A stretch of 64,000 nucleotides of DNA from an uncultured delta proteobacterium (GTDB taxonomy: Bacteria; Myxococcota_A; Polyangia; Palsa-1104), in contig CAWAWS010000007.1 of the NCBI GenBank assembly GCA_963785725.1, forward strand, positions 299,238 through 363,237. Reading direction: 5' to 3'. Positions 38,696 through 64,000 of this stretch are shown piece after piece. A program made the position numbers and the translations under genes. Under the pieces are notes generated by a model, which saw only the letters and a list, made by a program, of their open reading frames with translations, had not been told where the DNA came from and searched no databases. Within the stretch, counting starts at the first letter, position 1. Every line of letters begins with the position of its first letter.

Positions 38696-38815
38696 AAGAG
38701 CGCGACTGGCTGCGTCGTGTCTCAGATTTGTACGGTGGTGAGTGGCGCCGGTCGCGACGATCCGACTGGCACGATAGGTGCGATAGCCGTCCCCTTTTCA
38801 CATCGAGGAGCTTCT

Positions 38816-40162: not shown

Positions 40163-41439
40163 TCTGAAGGTGAATCTGGCCGGCATCGAGTCGCCCAATC
40201 CGTTCTGGCTGGCCTCGGCGCCGCCGACGAATACCGGCGATCAGGTGATGCGCGCGTTCGACGCCGGTTGGGGCGGCGCGGTGTGGAAGACGCTGGGCGA
40301 GCCCATCGTCAATGTCTCTTCGCGCTATTCGACCGTCGATATGAATGGTCAGAAGGTCATGGGGCTCAACAACATCGAGCTCATTACCGATCGGCCGTTG
40401 GCGGTCAATTTGCGGGAGATTACCGAGGTCAAGAAGCGTTATCCCAAGCATGCGCTCGTGGTCTCGCTGATGGTGGAATCGAAGCGCGAGAAGTGGCACG
40501 AGATCGTCAAAGCGGCCGAAGGCGCGGGCGCGGACGGGCTGGAGTTGAACTTCGGCTGCCCGCACGGCATGAGCGAGCGCGGCATGGGCTCGGCCGTCGG
40601 ACAGGTGCCCGATTACGCCTGTCAGATTACCGAGTGGGTCAAAGAAGCGGCGAAAACGCCGGTGATCGTGAAGCTGACGCCCAATGTCACCGACGTCGAT
40701 CTATCCGGCGCGCGCGGCGAAGAAGGGCGGCGCCGACGCGGTGTCGTTGATCAATACGATCAATTCGATTACCGGCGTCGATCTGGATACGTTTACGCCG
40801 CGGCCGGATGTCGGCGGACGTTCGGCGCACGGCGGATATTGCGGACCGGCCGTGAAACCGATCGCGTTGAATATGGTTTCGTCGATCGCCAAAGACGCGC
40901 AGGTGCGTTTGCCGATATCGGGAATCGGCGGCATCTCCAATTGGCGCGACGCCGCCGAGTTCATGCTGCTGGGCGCGACGACGGTGCAAGTGTGCACGGC
41001 CGTGATGCACTACGGCTTCCGCGTCGTCGAGGATATGATCGACGGGTTATCGAATTACTGCGATGAAAAGGGTTTTCGCAGCGTAAACGATCTGATCGGC
41101 CGCTCTTTGCCGGCGGTTTCGCGCTGGGAAGAATTGGACCTCAATTACAAGATCGTGGCCCGCGTCGATCAGGACAAATGCATCGGCTGCGGCATCTGTT
41201 ACGCCGCTTGCACCGACGGCGCGCATCAATCGATCGCGGCGCGGCCGGAGCACGGGCGCACGCACGTCGAGATCATCGAGTCTACGTGTGTCGGCTGTAA
41301 TTTGTGCTCGTTGGTTTGTCCGGTCGACGGCTGCATCAGCATGGTGCGCGTCGACGGTGGACGGCCGCCGCTGACGTGGAAAGAATATCAAGCTGACCCG
41401 AGCGCGCATAAGCATCTCGGTCCGCATAACGCTCACTAA
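40155..41439 (+). CDS. preA: Dihydropyrimidine dehydrogenase subunit PreA (DHOD-like TIM barrel plus C-terminal 2x[4Fe-4S]), frameshift near 40700
   Basis: The N-terminal frame reads ...VIVKLTPNVTDV, then the sequence continues in another frame as ...ARAAKKGGADAVSLINTINS... to CIGCGICYAACTDGA...CVGCNLCSLVCPVDGC. Confidence 0.8.
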
Positions 41440-41448
41440 GAGGTTCCC

Positions 41449-42912: not shown

Positions 42913-42952
42913 CAGACAGACATAGAACGGCTATCAACAGACAGACATAAAC

Positions 42953-43297
42953 ATGCAGCTCGAAGCACTGACATTGACGGCGCGGGATTTGAAGCGAGCG
43001 CGCCAGTTCTACGCCGGCAAGCTGGGATTCGCGGTGCTGGTGGAGAGCGAACGCTCGATCGTGCTCGACGCCGGCGGCGTTTTTCTGCAGCTCGCCGCCG
43101 ACGGCGTGCGCGCGCCGCTCGACGCGTCCGAGCCGCGCCTGGCGTTTCGTACGACCGACTTGTGGCAGCGCTGCGCGGCGCTGCGCGATCTCGGCGTCAG
43201 TGTGGACGGGCCGCTGCAAAACGAGGGCGGCGACGGGCGGCACGCGGAATTGCGCGATCCGGACGGACACCCGATTACGTTGTGGGAGAAACGATGA
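42953..43297 (+). CDS. VOC/glyoxalase-family protein
   Basis: 114 aa with a glyoxalase-like fold sequence (LTARDLKRARQFYAGKLGF...). Confidence 0.6.
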   Translation: MQLEALTLTARDLKRARQFYAGKLGFAVLVESERSIVLDAGGVFLQLAADGVRAPLDASEPRLAFRTTDLWQRCAALRDLGVSVDGPLQNEGGDGRHAELRDPDGHPITLWEKR

Positions 43298-44172
43298 CGA
43301 AGCGGACTGTGAAGTGCGGCTTGATTCAGGCGTCGAACCCGATCAACGACGAGAAGCGTCCGGTCGCCGAGATCCAAGCGGCGATGTACGAGAAGCATTT
43401 GCCGCTGATTGAAAAGGCGGGAAATGAGGGCGTGAAGATCTTGTGTCTGCAAGAGATCTTCAATGGACCTTACTTCTGTCCGTCGCAGGATTCGCGCTGG
43501 TACGACGCGGCGGAGGCGGTGCCGGGGCCGACGGTGAACAAGCTGGCGGCGATCGCCAAGAAGTTCGGAATGGCGATGGTCGTGCCGGTCTATGAGCGGG
43601 AAATGGCCGGCGTTTATTACAATACCGCGGCGGTTCTCGATCACGACGGCAGTTATCTCGGGAAATATCGCAAGAATCATATTCCGCAGGTCAATCCCGG
43701 GTTTTACGAGAAGTATTATTTCAAGCCGGGAAATCTCGGTTATCCGGTGTTCAAGCTGTCGTCGGGCGTCACGATCGGCGTCTATATTTGTTACGACCGC
43801 CATTTCCCGGAAGGCGCGCGCCTGTTGGGTTTGCATGGCGCCGAGATCGTCTTCAATCCGTCGGCGACGGTCGCCGGTTTGTCGCAATATCTTTGGAAGC
43901 TCGAGCAGCCGGCGCACGCAGTGGCCAACGGTTATTTCATGGGCTGCATCAATCGCGTCGGCACCGAAGCGCCGTGGAATATCGGTAAATTCTATGGCTC
44001 GTCCTATTTCGTCGACCCGCGCGGCAACTTCTTGGCGACGGCGTCGGAAGATCAGGACGAATTGGTCGTCGCCGAGCTCGATTTGAGCGCGATCGAAGAG
44101 ACGCGGCGGACCTGGCAGTTCTTCCGCGATCGCCGACCGGACAGCTATGGCGACATGGTAAAGGACGTTTGA
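43294..44172 (+). CDS. Beta-ureidopropionase / N-carbamoyl-beta-alanine amidohydrolase (nitrilase superfamily)
   Basis: CGLIQASNP..., EKAGNEGVKILCLQE (catalytic Glu), K of the triad, ...GVYICYDRHFPE (Cys of the triad). ATGA overlap with the upstream gene. Confidence 0.85.
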   Translation: MTKRTVKCGLIQASNPINDEKRPVAEIQAAMYEKHLPLIEKAGNEGVKILCLQEIFNGPYFCPSQDSRWYDAAEAVPGPTVNKLAAIAKKFGMAMVVPVYEREMAGVYYNTAAVLDHDGSYLGKYRKNHIPQVNPGFYEKYYFKPGNLGYPVFKLSSGVTIGVYICYDRHFPEGARLLGLHGAEIVFNPSATVAGLSQYLWKLEQPAHAVANGYFMGCINRVGTEAPWNIGKFYGSSYFVDPRGNFLATASEDQDELVVAELDLSAIEETRRTWQFFRDRRPDSYGDMVKDV

Positions 44173-44179
44173 TAGCGCC

Positions 44180-45571
44180 ATGCGCACATTGATTCAGAAT
44201 GGAACGTGCGTAACCGCGAGCGATATGTTCGCCGCCGATGTATGGATCGAGAACGGCAAGATCACGGCGCTGACACAACCGGGAACCAAGCTCGGTAACG
44301 CCGATAAGATCATCGATGCGACGGGGAAATATGTGATTCCCGGCGGAATCGACGCGCATACGCACCTCGATATGCCGTTTGGCGGCACCAGCTCGATCGA
44401 TGACTTCGAGTCGGGAACGCTGGCGGCGGCGCACGGCGGCACCACGACGATCGTCGATTTCGCAATTCAGAAGAAGGGCGGATCGCTGCGCGAGGCGCTC
44501 GATACCTGGCACGCCAAAGCCGAAGGTAAAGCCTTGGTGGACTATGCGTTTCATATGATCGCGACCGATATGCCGCCCAGTGTGCTGTCGGAGATGGGCG
44601 CGATCGTCAATGAAGGCGTCACCAGCTTCAAGATGTTCATGGCCTATCCGGGCGTGCTCATGCTCGACGACCAGTCGATCTTTCGCGCCATGCTGCGCGC
44701 GGGAGAGCTGGGCGCGCTCATTTGCATGCACGCGGAGACGGGACTGCCGATAGACGTGCTCGTCGAACGTGCGATAGCAGCCGGACATACGGCGCCGATC
44801 TATCACGCGCTGACGCGGCCGGAAGTGGCGGAGGCGACGGGGACCGATCGCGCCATCGCGCTCGCGGAGATGGCGAAAGTGCCGGTCTATATCGTGCATT
44901 TGTCGGCGCAGCGCGCGCTCGAACGCGTCATGGAAGCGCGCGATCGCGGGCTGCCGGCGTATGCCGAGACCTGTCCTCAGTATCTGTTCTTGAGCGAAGA
45001 TGACTTACGCGGCACGCCCAATGACGAGTTCGAAGGCGCCAAGTATGTCTGCACGCCGCCGTTGCGTCCCAAGCATCACCACGAGCATTTATGGCGCGGG
45101 CTGCGCAATCACGACCTGCAAGTCGTCTCGACCGACCATTGCCCGTTCTGCATGAAGGGGCAAAAAGAGCTGGGCAGAGGCGACTTTTCGAAGATCCCCA
45201 ATGGCATGCCGGGGATCGAGACGCGTTTGCATTTGTTGTACGAAGGCGTGCGCGAGAAGCGCATTTCGCTCAATCGCTTCGTCGAGATTACGGCGACGGC
45301 GCCGGCGAAGATCTTCGGGCTCTATCCGCGCAAAGGCACGATCGCCATCGGCGCCGATGCCGACGTCGTGGTGTGGGATCCCGAGAAGCGCTTCGAGCTG
45401 TCGCATAAGAATCTGCATATGCGCGCGGACTATGCGGCGTATGAAGGCAAGACGGTCATCGGCGCGCCGGCGCAAGTGTTGTCGCGCGGCGAAATCATCG
45501 TCGATAATGATAAAACGATCGGCAAAAAAGGGCGCGGGCAGTTCGTGCGCCGGGGGACTTTCTCTTTATGA
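44180..45571 (+). CDS. Dihydropyrimidinase / D-hydantoinase
   Basis: GGIDAHTHLDMPFGG (metal-binding HxH), carboxylated-Lys region, cyclic amidohydrolase fold over the full length. Confidence 0.88.
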   Translation: MRTLIQNGTCVTASDMFAADVWIENGKITALTQPGTKLGNADKIIDATGKYVIPGGIDAHTHLDMPFGGTSSIDDFESGTLAAAHGGTTTIVDFAIQKKGGSLREALDTWHAKAEGKALVDYAFHMIATDMPPSVLSEMGAIVNEGVTSFKMFMAYPGVLMLDDQSIFRAMLRAGELGALICMHAETGLPIDVLVERAIAAGHTAPIYHALTRPEVAEATGTDRAIALAEMAKVPVYIVHLSAQRALERVMEARDRGLPAYAETCPQYLFLSEDDLRGTPNDEFEGAKYVCTPPLRPKHHHEHLWRGLRNHDLQVVSTDHCPFCMKGQKELGRGDFSKIPNGMPGIETRLHLLYEGVREKRISLNRFVEITATAPAKIFGLYPRKGTIAIGADADVVVWDPEKRFELSHKNLHMRADYAAYEGKTVIGAPAQVLSRGEIIVDNDKTIGKKGRGQFVRRGTFSL

Positions 45572-46917
45572 GCACGGACGACGTTCGCGAAATCTCAGGT
45601 AAGCACACCTATGGCACTTGGCGGCGGCAAAAGGGGTTCAACCCGCTCAACATCGTCGACGCCGAAGGCTCGTACTTCACCGACTCGAGCGGCAAGCGCT
45701 ACCTCGATCTGTCGAGCCAGCTCATGTGCTCGAACCTTGGGCCACAAGAATCGCGCCGTCATCGACGCCATCAAGCGGCAAGCCGAGGAATTGGCGTTCA
45801 TCGCGCCCGGCTACACGACCAAGGCGCGCTCGGAGCTATGTAACGAGCTATTGACGGTACTGCCCACAGGACTGACGAAATACTTCTTTACGACCTCGGG
45901 CACGGAAGCGAACGAGGCGGCGATCAAGATCGCGCGGCTTTACACCGGTAAGCACAAGATCATCTCGCGCTACGCCAGCTATCACGGCTCGACGGCGGGA
46001 TCGATCTCGCTGACCGGCGATTTCCGTCGCTGGCCGTCCGAGCCGTTCGACACCGTGCCGGGCACGGCGTTCGCGCCCGACGTCAACTGCTATCGCTGCC
46101 CGCTCAAGAAGTCGCACCCCGAGTGCGGCATCGCCTGCGCCGATTACACCGAGTACATGATCGAGCGCGAAGGCAATGTCGCGGCGATGATCATCGAGCC
46201 CATCGTCGGTACCAATGGCATCTTGGTGCCGCCGAAGGAATATCTCGTCAAGCTACGCGCGATAACGAAGCGACATAACGTGCTGCTCATCGCCGACGAG
46301 GTCATGACCGGCTGGGGTCGCACCGGCGATTGGTTCGCGGTCAATCAGGGCGGCGACGGCCACGCCATCGTCCCCGAATTTTGTGCACCGCCAAAGGCAT
46401 CACCGGCGCCTATGTGCCGCTCGGTCTGTGTGCGACGACGGAAGAGATCGCCGACTTCTTCAATGAACGCTACTTCGCGCACGGACATACCTATGAGGCG
46501 CATCCGCTGACGCTTGGCGCCGGCGACGGCGGCGATCCGCGAGTACAAGCGACTTGAACCTCATCGAGCGTTCGCGGACGATGGGCGAGCTGCTCGGCCA
46601 GAAGCTGGCGGCGATCAAAGAGAAGCATCCGTCGCGTCGGTGACGTGCGCGGCCGCGGGCTCTTCTATGCCGTCGAGCTGGTCAAAGATCGCGCCAAGAA
46701 GACGCCGTTCAATACGCCGGCGGAGAAGCTGGAAGGCAAGCCGCTCGTCATCGATCAAGTGACGGCGAAGATGATGGGCGCGGGCGTCGCCTGTCTCGGC
46801 TGGATCAGCCACCTCGTCATCGCGCCGCCGCTCATCGTCACCGAGGCCGAGCTCGACGAAGGCTTGCGCGTGCTCGACGACGCGCTCACCGTCGCCGACG
46901 CGCACGTGGCGGCGTGA
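45568..46917 (+). pseudogene. Class III (omega) aminotransferase, beta-alanine/pyruvate type, disrupted by about 4-5 single-base indels (around 45737, 46378, 46510, 46549, 46634)
   Basis: The conserved AT-III sequence is distributed across all three frames: ...YLDLSSQLMCSNLG | HKNRAVIDAIKRQAEELAF...LIADEVMTGWGRTGDWFA | ILCTAKGITGAYVPLG...HGHTYEAHPLTL | AAIREYKRL | NLIERSRTMGELLGQKLAAIKEKHPS | VGDVRGRGLFYAVELV... Confidence 0.8.
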
Positions 46918-48450
46918 TGCCGCGCGGCGCCGATGATCCACGCGACATCGGCGCCGGCACCGTCGTCGGCGGCGAGATCCGCCACGCCGACGGGCGCGTC
47001 GAGCTCGACGCGGCGACGACGCGCGAAATCGAGTCCAGCCCGCTCTTCAATCACGATCTGGCGCCCGTGCGCGTCGCCGAGCGCACGTGGACCACGTACA
47101 ACTACGCCGCGCTCTGGATCTCGATGGCGCACTGCATTCCCACGTACATGCTGGCGTCGGGACTCATCGGCGCCGGCATGTCGTGGTGGCAGGCGCTCGT
47201 CACCATCTTGCTCGGCAACATGATCGTGCTCGTGCCCATCCTCGCCAACTCGCACCCCGGCACGAAGTACGGCATCCCGTTTCCCGTCTTCGCGCGCGCC
47301 GCTTACGGCACCTCCGGCGCGAACCTGCCGGCGCTGATGCGCGCGATCGTCGCGTGCGGCTGGTTCGGCATTCAGTGCTGGATCGGCGGCGAGGCGTTGC
47401 ACACGTTCTTTAGCGCCGCGTTCCCGTGGTGGCGACATACGCTGGCTATCGCACCTGCGAATGGCGGCCACGCGCTCGGCGAATGGATCGGCTTCGCGCT
47501 CTTCTGGCGCATCAACATCGCCGTCGTCTTCCGCGGCATGGAGCTACTGCGCAAAGTGGAGAACTGGGCCGCGCCGTTCGTCCTCGTGATGACGACGTTC
47601 TTCGTCGTTTGGGCCTTGAAGCGCGCGCACGGCTTGGGCGCGATCATGGCGCAGCCCGGTAAGATTCCGCGATTTTCCGTCGTTCTTCAAAGTGTTCGTC
47701 CCGTCGCTGACCGCGATGATCGGCTTCTGGGCCACGCTGTCGCTCAACATGCCCGACTTCACGCGCTTCGGTCGCTCGCAGCGCGAGCAGATGCTCGGCC
47801 AGGTCGTCGCGCTGCCGACGACGATGACGGTCTTCGCCGCGATGGGCGTCATCATCACGTCCGCCAGCGTCCTCATCTACGGCCAAGCCATCTGGGATCC
47901 GGTGAGCTTGGTCGGCAAGTTCACGCAGCCGTGGCTCGTCGCCATCGCGATGTTCACCGTCGTCGTCGCCACGCTCAGCGTCAACATCGCCGCCAACGTC
48001 GTCTCGCCCGCCAACGATTTCGCCAACGCCTTCCCGCGCCACATCGGCTTTCGCATGGGCGGTCTCATCACCGGCGTCGTCGGCGTCGTCATGCTGCCGT
48101 GGAAGCTCATCGCCGATCCCTCGGGCTACATCTTCAAGTGGCTGCTCGGCTATTCCGGCGGCCTCGGCTCGATCGCGGGCGTGCTCATCGCCGATTATTT
48201 CATCGTGCGCAATAAACGCCTCAACCTCGCCGACCTCTATCGCGCGGGCGGCGAATATCATTATCGCGGCGGCTGGAACCTCCCGGCCGTCGCCGCGACG
48301 CTGCTCGGCTGCGGCTTGGCCTGGGCCGGCGCCGTCGTCCCGGCGCTGGCCGCGCTCTACGATTACGCCTGGTTCGTCGGGTTCATCGTCGCCGCCGTCG
48401 CTTACTTGGCGCTGGCACGAGCATCTGGCCCGCGTTCGGTTCAAGCTTAA
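46914..48450 (+). CDS. NCS1-family nucleobase/hydantoin permease, frameshift near 47680
   Basis: NCS1 N-terminus ...SPLFNHDLAPVRVAERTWTTYNYAALW..., with the remaining TM helices in the 47692..48450 frame (...FANAFPRHIGFRMGGLITGVVGVVMLPW...). Confidence 0.75.
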
Positions 48451-52798: not shown

Positions 52799-53089
52799 TT
52801 ACTTCTCGATGACCGCGAGGATGTCGTCTTCGCGCAGGATGATGTGGTCGTCGCCGTCGAGCTTCACTTCGGAGCCCGAGTACTTGCCGAAGAGGACCTT
52901 GTCGCCGGCCTTGACGTCGAGCGGACGGAGCTTGCCGTCGTCGCCGATCTTGCCGTTGCCGACGGCGATGACCTTCGCCTCGAGCGGCTTCTCTTTGGCG
53001 CTGTCGGGGATGAAGAGGCCGCCGGCGGTCTTCTCTTCTTCCTGAACGCGCTTGGCCAGGATGCGATCGTGCAGCGGTCGAATGGTCAT
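52799..53089 (-). CDS. groS: Co-chaperonin GroES
   Basis: [35 protein letters not shown]... Confidence 0.92.
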
Positions 53090-53101
53090 GGGATCCCTCC
53101 G

Positions 53102-53452
53102 TCAGGCGGCCGGCTTATCGCTGCCGCTAGATTTGGTGGTGGCTGGTTCGCTGGACTTCGTCGTCGATTCGGTGGACTTGGGAGCGGTTGCTGCGGCTTT
53201 GGCGTTCGATTCGTTGATGCTGCTCTGTACTTTTTCGGACCGATCGCTCGATTTCGGCTCGTTCGCCTTCTTCGAGGAATACAGATCCTTGTACCAACCG
53301 GAGCCCTTGAGCTGAAACGACGTCGAGCTGATCAACCGCTCGAGCTTGGGCGCATGGCACACCGGACACTCGACGAGCGCCGGATCTTTGATGCTGTGCG
53401 TCGCTTCCATTTCGTGCTCGCAGGCCTGACAGCGGTATTCGTACGTCGGCAT
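53102..53452 (-). CDS. FmdB-family zinc-ribbon protein (CxxC_CxxC_SSSS) with Ser/Thr/Lys-rich tail
   Basis: [43 protein letters not shown], then a low-complexity tail. Sits 12 nt upstream of groES on the same strand. Confidence 0.65.
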
Positions 53453-53495
53453 TCTTTCAACCTCGTGGTGCGTCAGGGTAACCATGCCTGGCGGA

Positions 53496-53522
53496 TTGTC
53501 AATCCCAGCAGGCGAGTGCTAA
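53496..53522 (-). promoter_or_regulatory. Degenerate CIRCE-like inverted repeat (TTGTCAATC-N9-GAGTGCTAA)
   Basis: The right half GAGTGCTAA matches CIRCE exactly. The left half matches 6 of 9 positions to TTAGCACTC. Located in the AT-rich divergent region upstream of the fmdB-groES-groEL strand. Confidence 0.35.
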
Positions 53523-53702
53523 AAAATCGAAAATTACACAATTGCTACAAATACATGCGATTGCAGGCTTGTGTAACAGTTGGGCACATTTTTGGCCAAT
53601 TCGTGGCCGTCGTTTCGGCGCTCGGCCGCTCACCATTGGTCGAGCCATTCGACGCGTTCTCGACGAGTGACACCTCGCCGAGCGCGTGCTATCGCACTGA
53701 AC

Positions 53703-54410
53703 ATGAGTCGTGCGCCGCTGACGGACTACGAGAAATACATCCGCACCGATGAGCTGTTGGCGCTGCAAAAGCCCGAGGATCAGCTCAGCTGCCACGACGA
53801 GATGCAGTTTCAGGTCGTGCATCAAGTGGCCGAGCTGTGGATGAAGCTGTGCGAGCACGAGCTGACCTTCGCCGCCGCGCGCATGAAAGAGAACGCCGTG
53901 GCGCGCGCGATGCGGGCGCTGGCGCGCGTGCGCGGCATTCAGGTGCTGCTGATGGACCAGCTGGCGCTGCTCGACACGATGGCGCCGCGCGACTACATGA
54001 CCATCCGTAACGCGCTCGGTCGCGGCTCGGGGCAGGAGTCGCCGGGGTTTCGCCGCATGCTGCAGCTGCCGGAAGAGGTGTGGCCGGCGTTCGCGCAGCT
54101 GCTGGAGGCGCGCGGCGTGACGCTGCGGCAGATCTACGAGGCGCCCGACTCGCAGCCGGAGCTGTTCAACCTCGCCGAAGGGCTCATCGACTACGATCAG
54201 AGCCTGCAAGCGTGGCGGATGCGCCATCTGCTCATCGTCTATCGCCAGATCGGCGCGGGGACGCCGTCGCTGAAGGGCAAGGCGTCGGACCTGCTCGCCG
54301 AAGGGCTGAAGCATCGCTTCTTCCCGAAGCTGTGGGACGTCCGCGACGAGCTGTTCGCCGAATGGACGCGCACACACCCATATGGCGCCGAGAAGGGCTA
54401 CCACGGCTGA
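53703..54410 (+). CDS. kynA: Tryptophan 2,3-dioxygenase
   Basis: ...LTDYEKYIRTDELLALQKPEDQLSCHDEMQFQVVHQVAELWMKL..., TDO family. Confidence 0.85.
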   Translation: MSRAPLTDYEKYIRTDELLALQKPEDQLSCHDEMQFQVVHQVAELWMKLCEHELTFAAARMKENAVARAMRALARVRGIQVLLMDQLALLDTMAPRDYMTIRNALGRGSGQESPGFRRMLQLPEEVWPAFAQLLEARGVTLRQIYEAPDSQPELFNLAEGLIDYDQSLQAWRMRHLLIVYRQIGAGTPSLKGKASDLLAEGLKHRFFPKLWDVRDELFAEWTRTHPYGAEKGYHG

Positions 54411-54438
54411 CCGATCCGTGATAGCGCTGAGCGCGACC

Positions 54439-55587
54439 ATGACGGACGATCTCCTCCGCTGGCGCGCCGAATTTCCCGCGCTCGAACGTTCGGTGTACAT
54501 GGTCTCGCATTCGCTCGGCGCGATGCCCAAACGCGCTTACGAGCATCTGCGAGGCTTCGCCGATCTGTGGGTCAACAAGGGCATCAACGCGTGGGATGAT
54601 TGGATCCCCGAGGTCGAGCGCGCGGGCGAGCGCATCGGCCGCATCATCGGCGCGCCCGCCGGCACCGTGGCGATGGCGACGAACGTGTCGCAGATTCAGG
54701 CGCTCGTCGCCAGTTGCCTCGACTACACGCCCGCGCGCAACAAGATCGTCTTCACGGCGCTCAATTTCCCGACGGTGAGCTACGTCTGGCACGAGGAGCG
54801 GCGGCGCGGCGCCGACGTCGTGGTCGTGCCCGGCGGCGACGGCGTGCACGCGCCGATGGACGCGCTCTTGGCGGCGATCGACGAACGCACGCTGATGGTG
54901 CCGATCTCGCACGTGCTCTTCCGCTCGTCGGCGATCAAAGACGTGGCCGCGGTCGTCAAGCGCTGTCAGGAAGTGGGCGCGCTGGTGATGCTCGATTGCT
55001 ATCAGTCGACGGGCACGGTGCCGCTCGACGTGACGGCGCTGGGCGTCGATTTCGCGTGCGGCGGCTCGGTCAAGTGGCTGTGCGGCGGCCCGGGCGCGGC
55101 CTACTTGTACGTGCGGCCCGATCGGATTCCGCAGTTCGCGCCGCGCAACACCGGCTGGTTCGGCAACGTCAAGCCGTTCGCGTTCACGATGCCGGAGCAG
55201 ACCTACGCGCCCAATATTTGGCGTTATATGGCGGGGACGCCGGCGATCGTCGCGCTCTATCAAGCGCGCGCGGGCGCCGAGATCGTGGCCGAGATCGGCG
55301 TCGCCAACATTCGCAAGAAGTCGCTCAGGCAGACGGCGCGCGTGCTGGCGAAGTGCGACGAGCGCGGCTGGAAGGTGAACACGCCGCGCGCCGAAAACGA
55401 GCGCGGCGGCAGCGTCTGCTTCGACTTCGCGGGCAGCGACCAGGTCGCGCGCGGCTTGAATGCGAGCGGCTTTTTGTGCGACTGGCGCCCGCAATCGGGC
55501 ATCCGAATGTCGCCCCATTTTTACACCAGCGACGACGAGGTCGAGCGCTTCCTCGACGAAGTCGCGCGTCTGCAAGGCACCACGTGA
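54439..55587 (+). CDS. kynU: Kynureninase (PLP-dependent)
   Basis: ...FPALERSVYMVSHSLGAMPKRAYEHL...LDCYQSTGTVPLDV...GGSVKWLCGGPG... Confidence 0.85.
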   Translation: MTDDLLRWRAEFPALERSVYMVSHSLGAMPKRAYEHLRGFADLWVNKGINAWDDWIPEVERAGERIGRIIGAPAGTVAMATNVSQIQALVASCLDYTPARNKIVFTALNFPTVSYVWHEERRRGADVVVVPGGDGVHAPMDALLAAIDERTLMVPISHVLFRSSAIKDVAAVVKRCQEVGALVMLDCYQSTGTVPLDVTALGVDFACGGSVKWLCGGPGAAYLYVRPDRIPQFAPRNTGWFGNVKPFAFTMPEQTYAPNIWRYMAGTPAIVALYQARAGAEIVAEIGVANIRKKSLRQTARVLAKCDERGWKVNTPRAENERGGSVCFDFAGSDQVARGLNASGFLCDWRPQSGIRMSPHFYTSDDEVERFLDEVARLQGTT

Positions 55588-55597
55588 GGAACGAACG

Positions 55598-55993
55598 ATG
55601 AATACGCCCATCAATCCGCGCGAGCTCGGCACACCGCGCGGCTACTCCAACGGCATGCTGGCGCCGCCCGGACGCATGCTCGCCATCGCCGGTCAGATCG
55701 GTTGGGACGGCACGGGCAAGCTCGTGTCCGACGACTTCGCGCAGCAGTTCAACCGCGCGCTCGGCAACGTCTTGGCCGTCTTGCACGAGGCCGGCGGCGT
55801 GCCCAGCGATTTGATCACGCTGCGCATTTACGTCGTGGATAAGCAGCGTTATTTGGCGCAAACGAAGGAGATCGGCGCGATCTATCGCGAGCTCATGGGG
55901 ACGCATTATCCGGCGATGGCGCTGCTGCAAGTGGCCGATCTGCTCGAGCCGGGCGCGCAGGTCGAGATCGAAGGGTTGGCGGTGATCTCCTGA
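55598..55993 (+). CDS. RidA/YjgF-family enamine/imine deaminase
   Basis: ...PRGYSNGMLAPPGRMLAIAGQIGWDG...PAMALLQVADLLEPGAQVEIEGLAV. Confidence 0.8.
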   Translation: MNTPINPRELGTPRGYSNGMLAPPGRMLAIAGQIGWDGTGKLVSDDFAQQFNRALGNVLAVLHEAGGVPSDLITLRIYVVDKQRYLAQTKEIGAIYRELMGTHYPAMALLQVADLLEPGAQVEIEGLAVIS

Positions 55994-56787
55994 TCGCGCC
56001 CAAGAGCTTCCGTTATGCCGTCGAGGATCATATTGCGACGATCACGCTCGATCGGCCGGAGACGCTCAATTCGCTGACGTTCGAGGTCTACGCCGAGCTG
56101 CGCGACTGTTTCCGCGCGCTCGAGAACGAAGCCGAGGTGCACGCCATCGTCATCACCGGCGCCGGGCGCGGCTTCTGCAGCGGCGGCAGCGTCAACGACA
56201 TCATCGGCCCCTTGTTCGCCATGTCCGCCGTCGAGCGCATGGCGTTCACGCGCATGACGGGCGATCTCATCGGCGCCATTCGTCAGCTGCGTAAGCCGGT
56301 GGTCGCGGCCATCAACGGCGTCGCGGCGGGCGCGGGCGCGGTCATCGCGCTGGCGTGCGACTTCCGCGTCATGTCGGAGAAGGCGAAAATAGCGTTCCTG
56401 TTCGTCAAGGTCGGGTTGGCGGGCGCGGATATGGGCGCGGCCTGGCTGTTGCCGCAAGTGGTCGGCTTGGCGCGCGCGACCGAGATCTTGATGCTCGGCG
56501 ATCCGGTCGTCGCCGCCGACGCGCTGCGCATCGGTTTGGCCAATCGCGTCGTCGCGCCGGAGCAGGTGGTGACCGAAGCGCGCGGGCTGGCCGAGCGGCT
56601 GGCGCGCGGGCCGCGGTTTGCGCTCGGGATGACGAAGGAGATGTTGAACCGCGAGCCGCAGCTGACGCTGGAGGCGGCGTTGGAAGCGGAAGCGCAGGCG
56701 CAGCAGATCTGCATGGCGACCGAGGATTTCCGCGAGGCGTACGAGGCGTTCACGGGCAAGCGCGAGCCGAAGTTTACCGGGAAGTAG
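55990..56787 (+). CDS. Enoyl-CoA hydratase/isomerase family protein (start codon unclear; no canonical in-frame start)
   Basis: ...ATITLDRPETLNSL...AIVITGAGRGFCSGGSVNDI...AAINGVAAGAGAVIALACDFRV... The frame is open far upstream without ATG/GTG/TTG, which suggests a non-canonical start or a lost start codon. Confidence 0.7.
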   Translation: MIAPKSFRYAVEDHIATITLDRPETLNSLTFEVYAELRDCFRALENEAEVHAIVITGAGRGFCSGGSVNDIIGPLFAMSAVERMAFTRMTGDLIGAIRQLRKPVVAAINGVAAGAGAVIALACDFRVMSEKAKIAFLFVKVGLAGADMGAAWLLPQVVGLARATEILMLGDPVVAADALRIGLANRVVAPEQVVTEARGLAERLARGPRFALGMTKEMLNREPQLTLEAALEAEAQAQQICMATEDFREAYEAFTGKREPKFTGK

Positions 56788-57006
56788 CCCGTCGCCGCGC
56801 GAGGCGTGCGCCGAGTGCAATCGAGCGAGCGTTCTTGTGGCGCACGGCGAGGACGCAACTTTTGGACGGGAACGGCGATAAAGGGGAGGGTGGTCGGGGG
56901 AATTCCATCGAGCCCACCATCCTCCGGACCTGTAGAGCGCGCGCCTCTCGGTATCCATGTGTCGAAGTCGTCGGTAAACGCAATCCATGAGCAACGGAGC
57001 GGGACG

Positions 57007-58119
57007 ATGATCGGCTTCCTCGAAGAGCGGCACATCGCGTTGCGCTATCGCGCGCAGGCTTGGGTCGACGCGGCCGGGCTGGAGAATGACCACGATCCGG
57101 CCGAGCTCGTCGCGCGGCTGGCGCGTCACGAGCTCTTGCGCGCCTGCGTGCCGGCGGCGTACGGCGGCCTGCGCGAGCGCGTCGAATTGCGCGACTTGTG
57201 CGTGCTGCGCGCGGTCATCGGCTATCGATCGTCGCTCGCCGACACGATGTTCGCCATGCAGGGCCTCGGCAGCTATCCGGTGACGCTGGCTGGCACCGAA
57301 GCGCAGAAGCAGGCGCTCTTGCCGTCGGTGGCGAATGGTCAAACCATTTGCGCGTTCGCGATCACCGAGCCGGAAGCGGGCAGCGACGTGTCGAGCGTCA
57401 GCACGCGCGCGGTCCGCGACGGCGATGGCTACGTCATCGACGGCGTCAAATGCTTCATCAGCAACGCCGGGCTCGCGCACTCGTACGTGCTGTTCGCGCG
57501 CACGTCGGACGATCGGCATCGCGGCCTCACGGCGTTCCTCGTCGACGGCAAAGCCAATGGTTTAACCATTACGCCGACCGAGCTCATCGCGCCGCATCCC
57601 ATCGGCACGGTGACGTTGCGCGGCGTGCGCGTGCCGGCGTCGGCGCGCGTGGGCGAGGAGGGCCAAGGCTTTCAGCTGGCGATGGCGACGCTCGATTTCT
57701 TCCGCACGTCGGTGGGCGCGGCGGCGTTGGGCATGGCGGCGCGCGCGCTCGACGAAGCCAAGGCGCGCGTCAAGGCGCGGCGGCAGTTCGGCAAGGCCCT
57801 GAGCGAGTTTCAGGGCACGCAGATCGCGCTCGCCGACATGGCCGTCGACGTCGCGGCGTCGCGGCTGTTGGTGTTCTCGGCGGCGCAGCGCATCGACGGC
57901 GCCGATCAGCCGGGCAGCGTCGACGCGGCGATGGCCAAGCTGTACGCGACGGAGGCGGCGCAGCGCGTCGTCGATCGCGCCGTGCAGCTATTCGGCGGGC
58001 AAGGCGTGGTGGCCGGCTGTATCGTCGAGCGGCTCTATCGGGAAGTGCGCGCGCTCAGAATTTACGAGGGCACGAGCGAGATCCAAAAGCTCGTCATCGC
58101 CAAGGCGCTGCTGCGCTGA
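57007..58119 (+). CDS. Acyl-CoA dehydrogenase
   Basis: ...[21 protein letters not shown]...[10 protein letters not shown]... C-terminal ...[43 protein letters not shown]. Confidence 0.85.
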
Positions 58120-58246
58120 AACGCGCGGTCCACGGGCATTTACGCGACAGTCGACACGCGGCGGGCGCGCAGGGCGGGCGCGCGCATCGGGCGACTGCGC
58201 TCGGCAGCGTGCTCGTCGGGGCGTCCGACGCGACATTCGACGGCAT

Positions 58247-58443
58247 GCATCATCGCTGGTTCGGCGCGGAATGCGACGGCGTGCACTATCGCGCGGTCGG
58301 CGCAGAATGTGACGGCATGCGCCATCGCGTGTTCGGCGCGGAATGCGACGGCATGCGCGATGGCGCGTTCGGCGCGGAATGCGACGGCATGCGCGATGGC
58401 GCGTTCGGCGCGGAATGCGACGGCATGCGCGATGGCGCGTTCG
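58247..58443. repeat. Tandem repeat array, 36-bp unit TTCGGCGCGGAATGCGACGGCATGCGCGATGGCGCG, about 5-6 copies (3 identical, upstream copies diverged)
   Basis: Direct reading of 58247-58443. Intergenic, between the ACAD stop (58119) and the ferredoxin start (58584). Confidence 0.85.
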
Positions 58444-58583
58444 ACGAGCAAGCGACGGCCTATTTGCTGCTCGGCTCGGTCGCGCATCCGACGGGGGCGT
58501 TCGATAGCGCTGTCGCGCTGCGCGGATCGCGATAAATTACAGCTCGCGGCGCTGACGCGTTCGCAAAGGGAATGGTTCAACCA

Positions 58584-58949
58584 ATGCCGCATTACGAGAA
58601 GCACGTCTTCATCTGCACCAACGAGCGCGACAAAGACAACCCGAAGGGCGACTGCGCGCGCCGCGGCTCCGACGACATTCGCGACGCGTTCAAGAAGGGC
58701 ATTCACGAGCGCGGCTTGAAGGGGCGCATGCGTGCCAACGCGGCCGGCTGCCTCGACCAGTGCGCGTTCGGGCCCACCGTCGTCGTCTATCCCGAGCAGG
58801 TTTGGTACTCGGTGCCGACGCGCGCGGACGCCGAGGAGATCATCGAGAAGCACTTGGTCGGCGGTGTTCCCGTCGAGCGGCTGCTGTTGCGCACGAACAA
58901 GGACAAAGAGCAGGACAAAGCCGGCAAGGAAGGCAAAGAGCCCAAATGA
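58584..58949 (+). CDS. Thioredoxin-like [2Fe-2S] ferredoxin-domain protein
   Basis: ...HVFICTNERDKDNPKGDCARRGSDDI...AAGCLDQCAFGPTVVVYPEQVWY... An alternative in-frame ATG at 58572 would give MVQPMPHYEK. The start is embedded in the AATGGTTCAACCAATG motif. Confidence 0.75.
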   Translation: MPHYEKHVFICTNERDKDNPKGDCARRGSDDIRDAFKKGIHERGLKGRMRANAAGCLDQCAFGPTVVVYPEQVWYSVPTRADAEEIIEKHLVGGVPVERLLLRTNKDKEQDKAGKEGKEPK

Positions 58950-59200
58950 AGAAGCCGCAAATTCTCGTCGGTGTGGCCGGGCTGGCGCTCGGTCTGTTGC
59001 TCGGCGGCGCGTTCATCGGTCGCGCGCATGCGCAGCAGCCGGGCGCACGCTTTCAGTACATGTGCCAGACGAAGCTGAACAAAATCTGGACCCCCGAAGC
59101 GCAAGCCAGGCTCAACGAGCTGGGAAGCCAGGGCTGGCAGCTCTTGCCCACGCGCAGCCCAATGAACGAGGACGTCTATTGCTACGAGCGTCGCTTCTGA
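58946..59200 (+). CDS. Small secreted protein (84 aa, signal peptide, 2 Cys)
   Basis: MKKPQILVGVAGLALGLLLGGAFIGRAHA signal. ATGA overlap with the ferredoxin stop. Confidence 0.55.
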   Translation: MKKPQILVGVAGLALGLLLGGAFIGRAHAQQPGARFQYMCQTKLNKIWTPEAQARLNELGSQGWQLLPTRSPMNEDVYCYERRF

Positions 59201-59235
59201 ATGGTTTAACCAATCTTCGGATTGGTTAAACCACT
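59200..59235. repeat. Inverted pair of AATGGTTTAACCAAT-type units separated by CTTCGG (36-bp near-perfect hairpin)
   Basis: AATGGTTTAACCAAT cttcgg ATTGGTTAAACCACT, overlapping the stop (TGA 59198-59200) of the small protein and the 5' region of the OYE gene. Confidence 0.8.
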
Positions 59236-59248
59236 CGTCGCTGCCGTC

Positions 59249-60707
<1,459 letters not shown>

Positions 60708-60724
<17 letters not shown>

Positions 60725-60743
60725 AGGGAATGGTTAAACCAAT
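60708..60743. repeat. Tandem pair of AATGGTT(G/A)AACCAAT units separated by AAAGGG
   Basis: The first unit encodes the C-terminal KWLNQ and contains the TAA stop of the OYE gene. The second contains the ATG (60742) of the CoA-ligase gene. The spacer AAAGGG is a plausible RBS. Confidence 0.8.
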
Positions 60744-62283
60744 GACAACGCCAAGTGAGACGACGTTTCAGCCGCAATTCCCCGAGCAGTTCAACATGGC
60801 GCGCTACTTCCTCGACGCGCGGATCGAAGAGGGGCGCGGCGATCACGTCGCCATCATCGACGACAGCGGGCAGTACACCTATCGCCAGGTGCAAGCGATG
60901 GCGAATCAGGTGGGCAACGCGCTGACGGCGATGGGCGTGGGCGTCGAAGATCGCGTGCTCATCGGGCTCTTCGACAGCGTCGAGTTCGCGGCGGCGTTCT
61001 TCGGCATCTTGAAGATCGGCGCCGTCGTGACGATGGTGAATCCCGAGCTGCCCGACGGCGATTATCAGCACTACCTCGACTACACGCGGGCGCGCGCGCT
61101 CATCGGCGACATTGGTTTGACCAATCGCATTGCGCCCATGATCGAGAGCTCGAAGCTGTTGCGCGGCGTCTTGAGCGCCGGCGGAAATTGGGCGGCGAAG
61201 GTCGGCGGCGCGTCGACGGAGCTCGTGAACTTCGACAGCTCCAAGGACGATCCGTCGGTGTGGCTGTTCACGTCGGGATCGACGGGGAAACCGAAGGGCG
61301 CCGTGCATCTGCAGCATGATTTTGCGTACAACACCGAGTGCTACGCCAAGCCGGTGCTGAAGATGCGCGCCGACGACGTGACGCTCGGCGTGCCCAAGCT
61401 GTTCTTCGGCTACGCGACGGGCAGCGACTTGATGTTCCCGTTTGCCGTCGGTGCGACGGCCGTGTTGTTTCGCGAGCGGGCGACGCCGGAGAAGGTGCTC
61501 GAGCTGTGCGCCAAGCACCAGGTCACGGTGCTGACGAGCGTGCCGACGATGATCAACAAGATGGTGCAGGCGGTGGGCGGCAAGCGTTCGCTGGCGCCGT
61601 TGCGCGCGGTGATTTCGGCGGGTGAGGCGCTGCCGGCCGAGCTCTATCACCGCTGGATGGAGACGTTCGGCGTCGAGATCCTCGACGGTATCGGGTCCGC
61701 CGAGCTGTTCCATATTTACATCACGAATCGACCGGGCGAGGCCAAGCCGGGGTCGCTCGGGCGCATCGTGCCCGGCTACGAGGCGAAGATCGTCGGCGCC
61801 GACGGCAACGTCGTCCCCGACGGTGAAATCGGCACGCTGTGGGTCAAGGGCGACTCGGCGGCGATCTGCTATTGGCAGGCGCACGAGAAGTCCAAAGAGG
61901 TGTTGCGCGGCGATTGGGTCGTGTCGGGAGACCTGTTTCGGCGCGACGGTGAGGGCTACTATTATTATGCCGGCCGCGCCGACGACATGCTGAAAGTGGG
62001 CGGCATTTGGGTGTCGCCGCTGGAGGTGGAGTCGTGTTTGCTGCGGCATCCGAACGTGCTGGAGGCGGCGGTCGTCGGCTACGAGGATGACGACGGGCTG
62101 GTGAAGTCGTTGGCGTTCGTGGTTCTGCGGGATGCGACGGCGTCGGACGAGCTGGCGCGCGGGATTATCGAGCACGCCAAGAGTCAGCTCGTGCATTACA
62201 AGGCGCCGCGGAAGGTGGAGTTCGTGGCGGCGCTGCCGCGGAGTGACCGGGGGAAGATCCTGCGGCGCGAGCTGCGGACGTGA
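60742..62283 (+). CDS. Benzoate-CoA-ligase-family aryl-CoA ligase (candidate anthranilate/2-aminobenzoate-CoA ligase)
   Basis: ...ARYFLDARIEEGRGDHVAII... AMP-binding motif LFTSGSTGKPKGAVH, ...GYGATG-like YATGSD, and a C-terminal ...HYKAPRKVEFVAALPRSDRGKILRREL. Confidence 0.85.
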   Translation: MTTPSETTFQPQFPEQFNMARYFLDARIEEGRGDHVAIIDDSGQYTYRQVQAMANQVGNALTAMGVGVEDRVLIGLFDSVEFAAAFFGILKIGAVVTMVNPELPDGDYQHYLDYTRARALIGDIGLTNRIAPMIESSKLLRGVLSAGGNWAAKVGGASTELVNFDSSKDDPSVWLFTSGSTGKPKGAVHLQHDFAYNTECYAKPVLKMRADDVTLGVPKLFFGYATGSDLMFPFAVGATAVLFRERATPEKVLELCAKHQVTVLTSVPTMINKMVQAVGGKRSLAPLRAVISAGEALPAELYHRWMETFGVEILDGIGSAELFHIYITNRPGEAKPGSLGRIVPGYEAKIVGADGNVVPDGEIGTLWVKGDSAAICYWQAHEKSKEVLRGDWVVSGDLFRRDGEGYYYYAGRADDMLKVGGIWVSPLEVESCLLRHPNVLEAAVVGYEDDDGLVKSLAFVVLRDATASDELARGIIEHAKSQLVHYKAPRKVEFVAALPRSDRGKILRRELRT

Positions 62284-62776
62284 CGGCGGCGGGCGCGGGG
62301 TTCGCGGCGGGCGCGGGGTTCGCGCGAGGCGCTCGGGGCGCGACGTTGGCGGCGGATGAGGCGACGTGCGCGATGTTCGCAACAGGCGAGACGACGTGCG
62401 CGATATTCGCGGCGGCTGGCGCGATGTTCGCGACATGCGAGGCTCGGGGCGCGACGTTGGCGGCGGATGAGGCGACGTGCGCGATGTTGGCGGCAGGCGA
62501 AATGACGCGCGCGATATCCGCGGCGGCTACGGCCATGGGCATGTTGTTCGCGGCTGGCGAAACAACGAGCGCGACGTTCGCGATGTTCGCGTCCCGGCAA
62601 CCGACGGTCGCGATGGTCGCGGCAGGGGAGTTCGCGCGAGGCGGCGCGGCCGTCATGTTGGGCGCGGAGCAGGCGCTCGAAGGCGCGTCGGCGACGCGCG
62701 CCGACGGTGCGTTCGCGAGGCGCGCGACCGCGCAATGCGCGTCGGCGACGCGCGCGACCACCGCTCGAGCCGACGC
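62284..62776. repeat. Degenerate tandem repeat region (about 30-33-bp period, core ...GACGTGCGCGAT(G/A)TTCGCG...), including a 46-bp exact duplication
   Basis: CTCGGGGCGCGACGTTGGCGGCGGATGAGGCGACGTGCGCGATGTT occurs twice (about 62330 and about 62441), and there are many TGCGCGATGTTCGC / CGCGATATTCGC variants. Intergenic, between the CoA ligase and the creatininase-family gene. Confidence 0.7.
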
Positions 62777-63535
62777 GTGAGGCGCCTCGGCGAGCTGACC
62801 TGGCCCGAAGCCGAAGCCCTGCGCGCGCGCGAGCCGATCATGCTCGTGCCGATCGGCTCCACCGAGGCGCACGGCCCGCACTTGCCGCTGGCCACCGACA
62901 CTATCTTGTCCGACGAGCTGGCGCTGCGCGCCGCCGCTGCGCTCGAAGCCGACGGATACGCCGCCGTCATCGCGCCCGCGCTCGCCTACGCCATCACCGA
63001 CTATGCCGGCGATTTCCCGGGCACGATCTCGCTGACCGCTGCGACCGCCGTCGCAGTTTTATCGGACATCTGCAGCTCGCTCATCGGTCGCGGCTGGCGT
63101 CGCGTCTGCCTCGTCAACAGCCACCTCGAGCCGGCGCACGTGACGTCGCTGAAGGACGCTTGCGCGCAGGCGTTCGCGCGCACCGGCGTCAACGTCGCGT
63201 TCGCCGATCAGCTCGATCGGCGCTGGGCGCGCACGCTGACCGACGAGTTCAAGCGCGGCGCCTGCCACGCGGGAAGCTACGAGACGTCGCTGGTGCTGGC
63301 GGCGCGACCGGAGCTCGTACGCGACGAGCTGCGCCGCGGATTAGTGGTTAAACCAATCGACCTGGCCAAGGCGATGCGCGAAGGCAAGCGGACGTTCATC
63401 GAGGCCGGCGCCGACCAGGCGTACTTCGGCGACCCGGCGGGCGCTACGGTTGAAGAGGGCAACGACATCTACGCGCGGCTGGTGGTCATGGTCGTCGAGA
63501 CCGTGCGCGCCGCGTGGCCAATCGAGAATGGTTAA
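62777..63535 (+). CDS. Creatininase-family amidohydrolase (start GTG 62777 or ATG 62735)
   Basis: ...LGELTWPEAEALRAREPIMLVPIGSTEAHGPHLPLATDTIL... ...GACHAGSYETSLVLA..., typical creatinine amidohydrolase / ArfB / MftE fold motifs. Confidence 0.75.
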   Translation: MRRLGELTWPEAEALRAREPIMLVPIGSTEAHGPHLPLATDTILSDELALRAAAALEADGYAAVIAPALAYAITDYAGDFPGTISLTAATAVAVLSDICSSLIGRGWRRVCLVNSHLEPAHVTSLKDACAQAFARTGVNVAFADQLDRRWARTLTDEFKRGACHAGSYETSLVLAARPELVRDELRRGLVVKPIDLAKAMREGKRTFIEAGADQAYFGDPAGATVEEGNDIYARLVVMVVETVRAAWPIENG

Positions 63536-63562
63536 ACCAATTTCGAAATTGGTTTAACCATT
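63527..63562. repeat. Perfect 36-bp palindrome AATGGTTAAACCAATTTCGAAATTGGTTTAACCATT
   Basis: The reverse complement is identical to the forward sequence. It overlaps the last codons (ENG) and the TAA stop (63533-63535) of the creatininase-family gene. Confidence 0.9.
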
Positions 63563-64000
63563 CAGTGGGCGTTCGCGCGACCGACTTCGGAAGCGATCCA
63601 CGTCGAGCGACGAAATCGATGCGCGAGCCTGCTTCCTCCACGTTCAATCGACGATGGGTGAAGTCGAGGTCGACGCGCCCGAGATGGGTCGGATAGTTCG
63701 TCTCGGCGTATCGACCTGTCTCGGCGTATCGATCGGACTCAACACGCCGATTCGGTATCGGCTGGGAACGCCAGACGGTGGGAACGCCGACGGAATGCCG
63801 AGACGGGTCGGCACGTCATGAGAGACATGCGGCGAGGCGGGGCTTTAAGTTTCAGCCGGGGCCGGCGCGACGGACCGATTCGGTGTGGCGAGACAGCCGA
63901 ATTCGGTGCGGGCAGATTCGACGCAACCAACTCATCGGCGCTACCAACTCATCGGCACGTTGACACCGATCGGGCAGCCGTAATGGAGTCCGTGCGCCGA

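Follow-up and report, generated by a model that had tools for sequence, protein, structure and literature searches.

The stretch of DNA analyzed here, referred to as the window, comprises 64,000 nucleotides of contig CAWAWS010000007.1 from an uncultured member of the Polyangia. Near its right end lies a catabolic gene cluster that finishes in a long palindrome. By Pfam and NCBIfam annotation, the cluster occupies positions 53580 to 63535 of the plus strand and encodes, in order, tryptophan 2,3-dioxygenase (TDO), kynureninase, enoyl-CoA hydratase (ECH), acyl-CoA dehydrogenase (ACAD), a 2Fe-2S ferredoxin-like protein, an 84-amino-acid open reading frame (ORF), an OYE-family flavin reductase, a benzoate-CoA-ligase-family enzyme, and a creatininase-family amidohydrolase. 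The creatininase-family gene (62777 to 63535; Pfam PF02633, E of 6e-57) ends in a TAA stop codon at 63533 to 63535 that is overlapped by the palindrome. As an earlier note on this DNA had stated, the 36-mer AATGGTTAAACCAATTTCGAAATTGGTTTAACCATT at 63527 to 63562 is an exact self-complement; none of 100 shuffled sequences gave a match. The next pair outward, G63526/C63563, is also symmetric, which extends the perfect palindrome to 38 bp (63526 to 63563). The note had read the first 9 nt as belonging to Glu, Asn, and Gly codons plus the stop. The stop is indeed included, but these 9 nt are AAT GGT TAA (Asn-Gly-stop), and the Glu codon, GAG at 63524 to 63526, lies just outside the 36-mer. The bases 3′ of the 36-mer are CAGTGGGCG; they contain no U-tract, and a terminator scan made no call at the palindrome, in agreement with the note's view that this is not a canonical terminator. 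Six-frame translation of positions 63500 to 64000 gave no convincing ORF starting at the right arm of the palindrome.

The palindrome is composite. Each of its arms forms a dyad of its own, a[at]TGGTTnAACCA[at]t, with centers at 63534 and 63555, 21 bp apart. The left dyad, box 11 (ATGGTTAAACCAA, 63528 to 63540), supplies the Asn-Gly-stop codons of the creatininase gene. It is separated from the right dyad, box 12 (TTGGTTTAACCAT, 63549 to 63561), by a symmetric TTTCGAAA spacer. The exact 36-mer is present once in the window and was not found in the metagenome collection. The half-site (13 to 16 nt), however, recurs: the 13-mer WTGGTTNAACCAW has 12 copies in the window at no more than one mismatch, all inside 57335 to 63561 and none in the other 57 kb. 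The probability that all 12 would fall by chance in the last 6.7 kb of the 64-kb window is ~2e-12. A search of the window at two mismatches added only one weak match, at 53636, where 1.08 were expected by chance. Hence, the unique occurrence that the note had held would speak against a functional site applies to the palindrome as a whole and not to its halves.

Operators of FadR-subfamily GntR regulators (PdhR, LldR, and FadR) are A/T-rich palindromes with TKGT and ACMA boxes and 3 nt between the GT and the AC (PMC4494728). The core TGGT-TnA-ACCA matches this consensus (TKGT-N3-ACMA), and the match is found in all 12 window boxes at no more than one mismatch. The likeness to the Escherichia coli PdhR, LldR, and FadR boxes extends to the A/T-rich flanks of the dyad (ATTGGTnnnACCAAT-like) (PMC4494728). 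We consider it likely, from sequence comparison, that the palindrome is a double operator, consisting of two adjacent 15-bp boxes, for an FCD-domain GntR repressor of the FadR subfamily. The operator of a dimeric repressor proposed in the earlier note would thus be right in kind; that note envisaged one 36-bp site, rather than two adjacent operators among twelve boxes.

Linkage of the box to a GntR/FCD regulator

We scanned 185,579 species genomes for two 11-mers of the box lying 9 to 11 bp apart. This motif-anchored scan returned 73 stretches, where by our estimate a handful would be expected by chance. Matches were concentrated in high-GC metagenome-assembled genomes (MAGs) of Polyangia/Myxococcales, with exactly the box form of the window; a second group came from Desulfosarcina and relatives, with the form GTAATGGTTWAACCATTAC. 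We assigned Pfam families to 77 box-adjacent ORFs from 21 Polyangia loci. GntR plus FCD was the most frequent combination (8 ORFs), and the next commonest families were pyridoxal-phosphate (PLP) enzymes, OYE, GMC oxidoreductases, ECH, and creatininase. All eight GntR/FCD genes had a box pair right at the 5′ end, and six of these pairs were shared with a divergent PLP-enzyme gene. A homologous regulator was also encoded within ~150 bp of the pair in 12 of 12 Desulfosarcina-type loci and in 2 further Polyangiaceae loci, so that the motif-anchored linkage of box and regulator comprises 22 loci. The Desulfosarcina-type loci (L003, L005, L006, L009, L025, L034, L038, L054, L055, L060, L063, and L074) carry one GTAATGGTTWAACCATTAC pair each, located 100 to 150 bp upstream of an ~30%-identity homologue of the same GntR/FCD regulator. 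The link between box and regulator therefore covers two phyla.

A second, protein-anchored test made no use of the motif. Metagenome contigs were searched with an alignment of the eight regulators. Of the 31 loci with the closest homologues, 25 had an exact TGGTTnAACCA no more than ~140 bp upstream of the regulator gene; more distant homologues had other TGGTnnnACCA variants. Outside the Polyangia, the box was typically located at −60 to −72 and was usually the sole copy in up to 12.7 kb, and the regulator gene was consistently followed by a GMC oxidoreductase gene. Eight more Polyangia-type loci (L076, L077, and L156 to L161) again had a pair at the start of the regulator gene. A pair at the regulator start codon was thus seen in 16 of 16 Polyangia loci. 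The position of the box 5′ of the gene for its own putative regulator implies autoregulation.

The regulator consists of a GntR winged helix-turn-helix (HTH) and an FCD domain, and it is most similar, by NCBIfam and PDB comparison, to PdhR, LldR, NanR, Rv0494, and FadR. Its HTH residues Arg28, Asn39, and Gly59 are compatible with the base preferences that have been reported, G/C at box positions 6/14 and A/T at positions 9/11. Its scores are far under every equivalog cutoff (71 bits, versus 330 for PdhR) and it therefore forms a distinct, uncharacterized orthologous group, whose members are labeled PdhR-like by annotation pipelines. We found no published description of the box, of a GntR regulator of kynurenine/anthranilate-CoA genes, or of GntR sites in myxobacteria.

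Two other sets of scan matches were noted. Opitutaceae/Verrucomicrobia MAGs (L004, L012, L027, L058, and L070) carry direct pairs of TTGACTGGTTTAACCATAC, which shares the core; we detected nothing homologous to the Polyangia regulator near these loci, and a different regulator may act there. Several paired-pattern matches (L037 at 3262 to 3461, L016, L035, L042, L050, and L071) are 21-bp tandem repeats in which the 11-mer core happens to occur; a Nitrososphaeraceae MAG, for instance, has ~10 copies of TGGTTCAACCAATGCAACTAG. Such repeats look unrelated to the operator.

Comparison with related genomes placed a regulator gene near the cluster. The cluster is syntenic at 70 to 83% amino acid identity in L031, L068, L059, L020, and L051 and at ~82% nucleotide identity in L156 and L157; the regulator homologues from long contigs, P0051 and P0057, likewise belong to relatives with ~82% nucleotide identity to the window. 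Loci were defined as non-overlapping 8-kb blocks, and the adjacency of L030 and L031 on one contig was established through a ligase gene split between them. This contig has 16 boxes in 16 kb. It carries genes for PP2C, HAD, one further protein, and a PLP enzyme, then a pair, then GntR and GMC oxidoreductase genes, then a second pair, and finally the convergent creatininase, ligase, OYE, ferredoxin-like, ACAD, ECH, kynureninase, and TDO genes. L156 and L157 have the same gene order. Past the cluster in these relatives, the creatininase gene thus faces GMC oxidoreductase and GntR genes, beyond which lie a pair and the PLP-enzyme gene. In seven relatives, the regulator gene is located by synteny 2 to 3 kb past the creatininase gene. 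Since the cluster continues to the regulator in syntenic relatives, the window genome's own copy is probably located just past position 64000, 2 to 3 kb beyond the window end. In L156 and L157 (European Nucleotide Archive contigs of 279 and 564 kb), gene calls in the cluster are fragmented, with ACAD, ECH, GMC, and regulator genes split or extended. This suggests frameshift errors in the two assemblies, and the regulator lengths of 397 and 332 amino acids there are probably artifacts. In short-read contigs of Logan sample ERR11630394 (L001 and L002), the encoded proteins are identical to those of the window; one of these contigs stops 20 bp past the creatininase stop codon, inside the palindrome. 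De Bruijn assemblies appear to be broken by the palindrome or by the repeated box.

Boxes within and between genes

The other ten window boxes extend from the ACAD gene to the creatininase gene. Boxes 1 (57335 to 57347) and 2 (57557 to 57569) are inside the ACAD gene and encode NGQTI (SGDAI or RGEAI in orthologues) and NGLTI, respectively. Box 3 (58572 to 58584) lies over the start of the ferredoxin-like gene, ATG GTT CAA CCA ATG. Boxes 4 and 5 (59201 to 59234; centers at 59207 and 59228) form a pair between the 84-amino-acid ORF (TGA at 59198 to 59200) and the OYE gene (TTG at 59222 or ATG at 59249); the spacer is CTTCGG, the symmetry is 16/19, and the predicted RNA hairpin has an energy of −23.2 kcal/mol. 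Box 6 (59797 to 59809) is inside the OYE gene and encodes QWLNQ (AELPE or ERLSE in orthologues). Boxes 7 and 8 (60709 to 60742; centers at 60715 and 60736) are the pair at the OYE-ligase junction, where box 7 includes the OYE stop codon TAA and box 8 includes the ligase start (ATG at 60730 or 60742). Box 9 (61112 to 61124), inside the aryl-CoA ligase gene, encodes IGLTN (RALAD or ATLTA in orthologues); codon comparison indicates that it arose in the lineage of the window. Box 10 (63344 to 63356) is inside the creatininase gene, where GTG GTT AAA CCA ATC encodes VVKPI. The same codons are boxed in L051 and L059, whereas L020 and L030 have LAPHQI and LAPLPI; a box in L014 was placed at this site from its coordinates, without alignment. 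Including boxes 11 and 12, the window has three pairs with centers 21 bp apart, stop codons are overlapped at 59198, 60722, and 63533, and other boxes overlap start codons. The OYE-ligase junction is boxed in five of five syntenic genomes: three have an orthologous pair (L051 and L059 among them), L031 has a triple, and L020 has one box.

The five intragenic boxes are in differing reading frames, and codons under them have a G+C content at third positions (GC3) of 0.36, versus 0.86 gene-wide (P of 1e-8). Codon alignments indicate that boxes were made in single lineages by clustered, protein-changing substitutions without insertions or deletions (indels), as is evident from the amino acids under them (NGQTI versus SGDAI/RGEAI in ACAD, IGLTN versus RALAD in the ligase, QWLNQ versus AELPE in OYE, and LVVKPI versus LAPHQI in the creatininase). 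One ACAD loop, that of box 2, is boxed in all three aligned genomes, each time in a different register. The central base and the spacer are variable, there is no strand bias, and single copies are common, as is expected of a DNA-binding dyad. We concluded that selection acts on the boxes at the level of DNA and not at that of RNA or protein sequence.

An in-frame ATG or TTG inside the box is common in box-adjacent genes, the regulator gene included, and the products would start with M-V-K/Q-P (ATG GTT AAA CCA). Such start codons were seen in the window at 58572, 59222, and 60730 and in L014, L020, L021, L030, L051, L059, and L062. The ferredoxin-like and ligase genes both start with GGGAATGGTTnAACCAATG, and a possible start of the OYE gene is TTG GTT AAA CCA. 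At divergent pairs, the start codons of both genes lie inside the 36-bp double box, leaving no space for separate leaders; transcripts there may be leaderless or overlapping. A promoter scan found no sigma-70-like promoter anywhere in 57 to 64 kb, and matches to promoter hexamers within boxes were too weak to claim. Positions 53500 to 53650, just 5′ of the TDO gene, are unusually A/T-rich (gctaaaaaatcgaaaattacacaattgctacaaatacatg) and are likely to be the promoter region of that gene. The weak box at 53636 (TTGGTCGAGCCAT, two mismatches) is located about where L068 carries a full pair.

Enterobacterial REP/BIME elements are short paired palindromic units located at gene junctions and 3′ ends, and they can form stem-loops in mRNA. 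The double box resembles them in these features of size, pairing, and placement. It might accordingly be a selfish REP/BIME-like or MITE-like repeat that is copied and pasted into gene junctions and associated with the regulator only secondarily. We regard this as very improbable. It would account for the presence/absence polymorphism at the creatininase stop codon, for the frequency of junction copies (~1 per kb in some regions, beside unrelated genes), and for the genome-specific pair spacing of 20 or 21 bp. However, no target-site duplications flank any pair, and five of the 12 boxes in the window lie in coding sequence, where they were formed in place. REPs are intergenic, genome-wide, conserved over their whole length, and associated with RAYT transposases; here, conservation is limited to protein-contact positions while spacers and flanks vary, some copies are intragenic, and where boxes occur depends on a set of genes. 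No box is present in 57 kb of the window or in the left 10 kb of L157, boxes track particular gene families, and outside the Polyangia the box is present as a single copy upstream of the regulator gene. The same observations count against the terminal hairpin of a mobile element, which the earlier note had also offered.

In the Polyangia, box density reaches ~1 per kb over a conserved but functionally mixed gene set, in contrast to the single upstream copy of other phyla. Box-bearing families that recur in several genomes include DUF4388, kinase, HAD, PP2C, LysM, and MBL. We considered whether box-rich regions are positional domains of the chromosome. This is weakened by a comparison of two relatives: the genes of the left 10 kb of L157 are different ones and carry no boxes, whereas the left flank of L156 has the usual box-bearing families. 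We concluded that the distribution is more in keeping with a regulon than with a selfish repeat or positional domain.

Several features of the cluster and window lie outside the boxes. G+C-rich tandem repeats occupy three non-coding gaps, at 58238 to 58459 (36-bp unit, 6.2 copies), 62286 to 62755 (18/30/60 bp), and 63763 to 63956 (16 to 17 bp). A 166-amino-acid Ala-rich ORF (62280 to 62780) crosses one of these arrays, and its stop codon overlaps the GTG start of the creatininase gene (GTGA). The ligase and creatininase genes abut in L020 and L059 and are separated by ~550 bp in L030. No recognizable kynurenine formamidase is encoded among the genes annotated in the cluster (53580 to 63535). 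The creatininase family includes formamide hydrolases, and the creatininase-family gene, which is conserved in the cluster across genomes, might speculatively fill this step. Farther left, at 46558 to 48450 and about 38000 to 46500, two ORFs are similar to their families over the C-terminal part alone (Aminotran_3 profile positions 334 to 403 and cytosine/purine permease profile positions 201 to 440). G+C content in this region is lower (0.60 to 0.63), and few ORFs are supported by GC3; pseudogenes or a foreign segment may be present at ~38000 to 48450.

Spacing and symmetry of paired boxes

We determined the distances between neighboring boxes in a census of 129 boxes from the window and the 21 Polyangia loci. 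There were 42 gaps of 19 to 21 bp and none of 22 to 59 bp, and the spacing of pairs was specific to the genome, at either 20 or 21 bp. For the 23 pairs at 21-bp spacing, arm complementarity averaged 13.83 of 19 positions, compared with 13.84 for random re-pairing of halves (P of 0.55), and the three innermost spacer positions were complementary at the random rate (0.23 to 0.26). The most conserved pair, at the OYE-ligase junction, had a predicted RNA fold of −9.2 kcal/mol (z of −0.97), no better than shuffles, and single boxes do not fold. Selection of the pairs as hairpins is thus rejected on the basis of the permutation test and the folds of the other pairs.

Two of the window pairs, boxes 4 and 5 and the 3′ pair, would fold strongly as RNA, and an RNA role was considered for the latter. 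The last gene of the operon would end in a 17-bp stem-loop, which could be a terminator without a U-tract or a barrier to 3′ exonucleases; because the neighboring gene is convergent in relatives, it would possibly work in both orientations. The hairpin is predicted to be strong (−22.6 kcal/mol as RNA, z of −6.8), the pair is located at the end of the last gene, its L030 orthologue fills a 36-bp convergent gap, and the window copy is more symmetric than independent boxes predict. Nevertheless, the stem is A/T-rich and followed by CAGUGGGCG, rather than being the G+C-rich stem plus U-tract of an intrinsic terminator, and Rfam 15 gave no match at E ≤ 1 on either strand of 53000 to 64000. The random level of arm symmetry at 21-bp pairs, the unremarkable fold of the OYE-ligase pair, and the absence of a pair from the creatininase end in seven of nine related genomes also argue against this explanation, which we judge improbable as the primary function. 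An RNA role could exist as a by-product beside that of an operator.

The perfect 38-bp dyad, its A/T-rich center, and a predicted DNA hairpin of −16.7 kcal/mol might instead point to a recombination or cruciform site, such as an integron attC-like site or the site of another structure-specific enzyme, as the earlier note had allowed. The sequences GTTAAAC and GTTTAAC bear what we take to be a resemblance to the attC cores GTTRRRY and RYYYAAC. The palindrome, however, is perfectly complementary and so is without the extrahelical bases and asymmetry of attC, and its cores stand in inverted order compared with attC (R″-L″...L′-R′). Its flanks are a conserved, syntenic catabolic operon and not cassettes, the same box is also found single and intragenic, and pairs in general show no selection for symmetry between arms. 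We therefore consider a recombination site extremely unlikely.

The history of the pair at the creatininase stop codon bears on its symmetry. This pair was present in only two of nine related genomes, the window and L030, which share the register AAT GGT TAA. In L020, L051, L059, L156, and L157, the creatininase orthologues, whose sequences we checked, have their own stop codon two codons earlier and no pair; L014 and L021 have no box near the end of the creatininase gene. The window pair is the only perfect one among the 42; if boxes were independent, 6.5e-4 perfect ones would be predicted per pair, which is 0.03 for all 42. Because the L030 copy is imperfect (13/18), the perfect symmetry of the window copy is most simply read as a secondary event, for example a quasi-palindrome corrected by template switching or an inverted duplication of recent date. 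A minor alternative cause is selection for an RNA hairpin at the 3′ end.

Proposed role of the 3′ pair

The comparisons above establish how the boxes are built, clustered, and spaced, that they fit the consensus of the family, that box and regulator are linked across genomes, and that selection acts on the boxes as DNA. That the site is an operator pair we regard as well supported. Its specific role we infer, as we do binding, repression, the effector, and the presence of the regulator in the window genome. Each 15-bp dyad would bind one regulator dimer through the winged HTH. As 21 bp corresponds to two helical turns, two dimers would share one face of the DNA, and their binding could be cooperative. 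The Agrobacterium regulator Atu1419 reportedly acts as a dimer of dimers that engages two palindromes, which would be a precedent for paired boxes bound together. The 3′ pair and the ten other boxes over the ACAD-to-creatininase genes would keep the tryptophan/kynurenine/aryl-CoA cluster repressed, and binding of an effector to the FCD domain would release the repressor. With its location at the 3′ end of the operon's final gene, opposite a gene that is convergent in relatives, the pair is most likely to be auxiliary and unlikely to be a promoter operator. It might anchor looping or cooperativity, or act as a protein roadblock between the operon and the regulator/GMC unit, insulating the former from the latter.

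Five observations weigh against a double operator of this kind. First, no GntR/FCD gene was detected in the 64-kb window by tblastn with eight regulator queries (best E of 0.02). Second, the pair is at the 3′ end of a gene and not at a promoter. Third, its restriction to two of nine related genomes indicates that it may be dispensable. Fourth, a perfect 36-mer is rarer than two independent boxes predict, and the window copy has extra symmetry. Fifth, a local FadR-type repressor would not typically have ~1 box per kb, with boxes also inside genes and beside functionally unrelated ones, such as those for UvrD, an HtrA-like protease, kinases, and a sulfatase.

E. coli FadR-subfamily regulators have one or two boxes per promoter. 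PdhR, LldR, and FadR share with the Polyangia regulator the GntR winged HTH plus FCD architecture and a box upstream of the regulator's own gene. In contrast, the Polyangia regulator is tied to a GMC oxidoreductase and the kynurenine/aryl-CoA cluster, the box center is fixed as TTnAA, and there are ~12 boxes in 6 kb, many of them intragenic or over start or stop codons. Atu1419 of Agrobacterium fabrum is described as a tetrameric FCD-type GntR regulator (PMC7797058). Like the proposed Polyangia system, it is a regulator of a catabolic region for aromatic acids (hydroxycinnamates) (PMC7797058). The box sequence and pathway differ, and no box proliferation like that in the Polyangia is described for it. 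Three dimers of E. coli NanR bind cooperatively to an operator with a (GGTATA)3 repeat (PMC8012715). NanR has in common with the proposed system a FadR-subfamily repressor, closely spaced repeated sites, and cooperative binding of several dimers; it differs in using direct hexamer repeats at one promoter, compared with full dyads at a 20- to 21-bp pitch in many locations.

A broader possibility, which we put forward tentatively and think doubtful, is that a FadR-type autoregulatory operator became a proliferating, semi-autonomous module in the Polyangia, such that boxes and 20- to 21-bp double boxes keep arising, at ~1 per kb, inside and between genes of a conserved set with mixed functions. 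On this reading, the boxes rewrite codons, donate starts (MVKP- N termini) and stops (-NG*), and come and go between close relatives. The perfect palindrome would then be a newly made or newly "corrected" copy. If true, the regulator would act by distributed roadblocking or bridging of a multi-operon region, in a silencer-like manner and not by promoter occlusion, and a short-patch conversion process that copies operators could be implied.

Taken alone, the palindrome is an ordinary regulatory site of a known operator type, and the proliferation of boxes in the Polyangia is the unusual and moderately interesting part. Through the palindrome, the operator TGGTTnAACCA and the likely regulon are identified for a large, uncharacterized GntR/FCD group mislabeled "PdhR". 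This provides a handle on how uncultured Polyangia control a pathway from tryptophan through kynurenine to anthranilate-type aryl-CoA compounds. Selection on the boxes is strong enough to override codon usage and amino acid sequence and to supply start and stop codons. With the box present as a single copy per locus in other phyla, the Polyangia offer a natural case for studying regulon expansion and the constraint that binding sites place on protein evolution.

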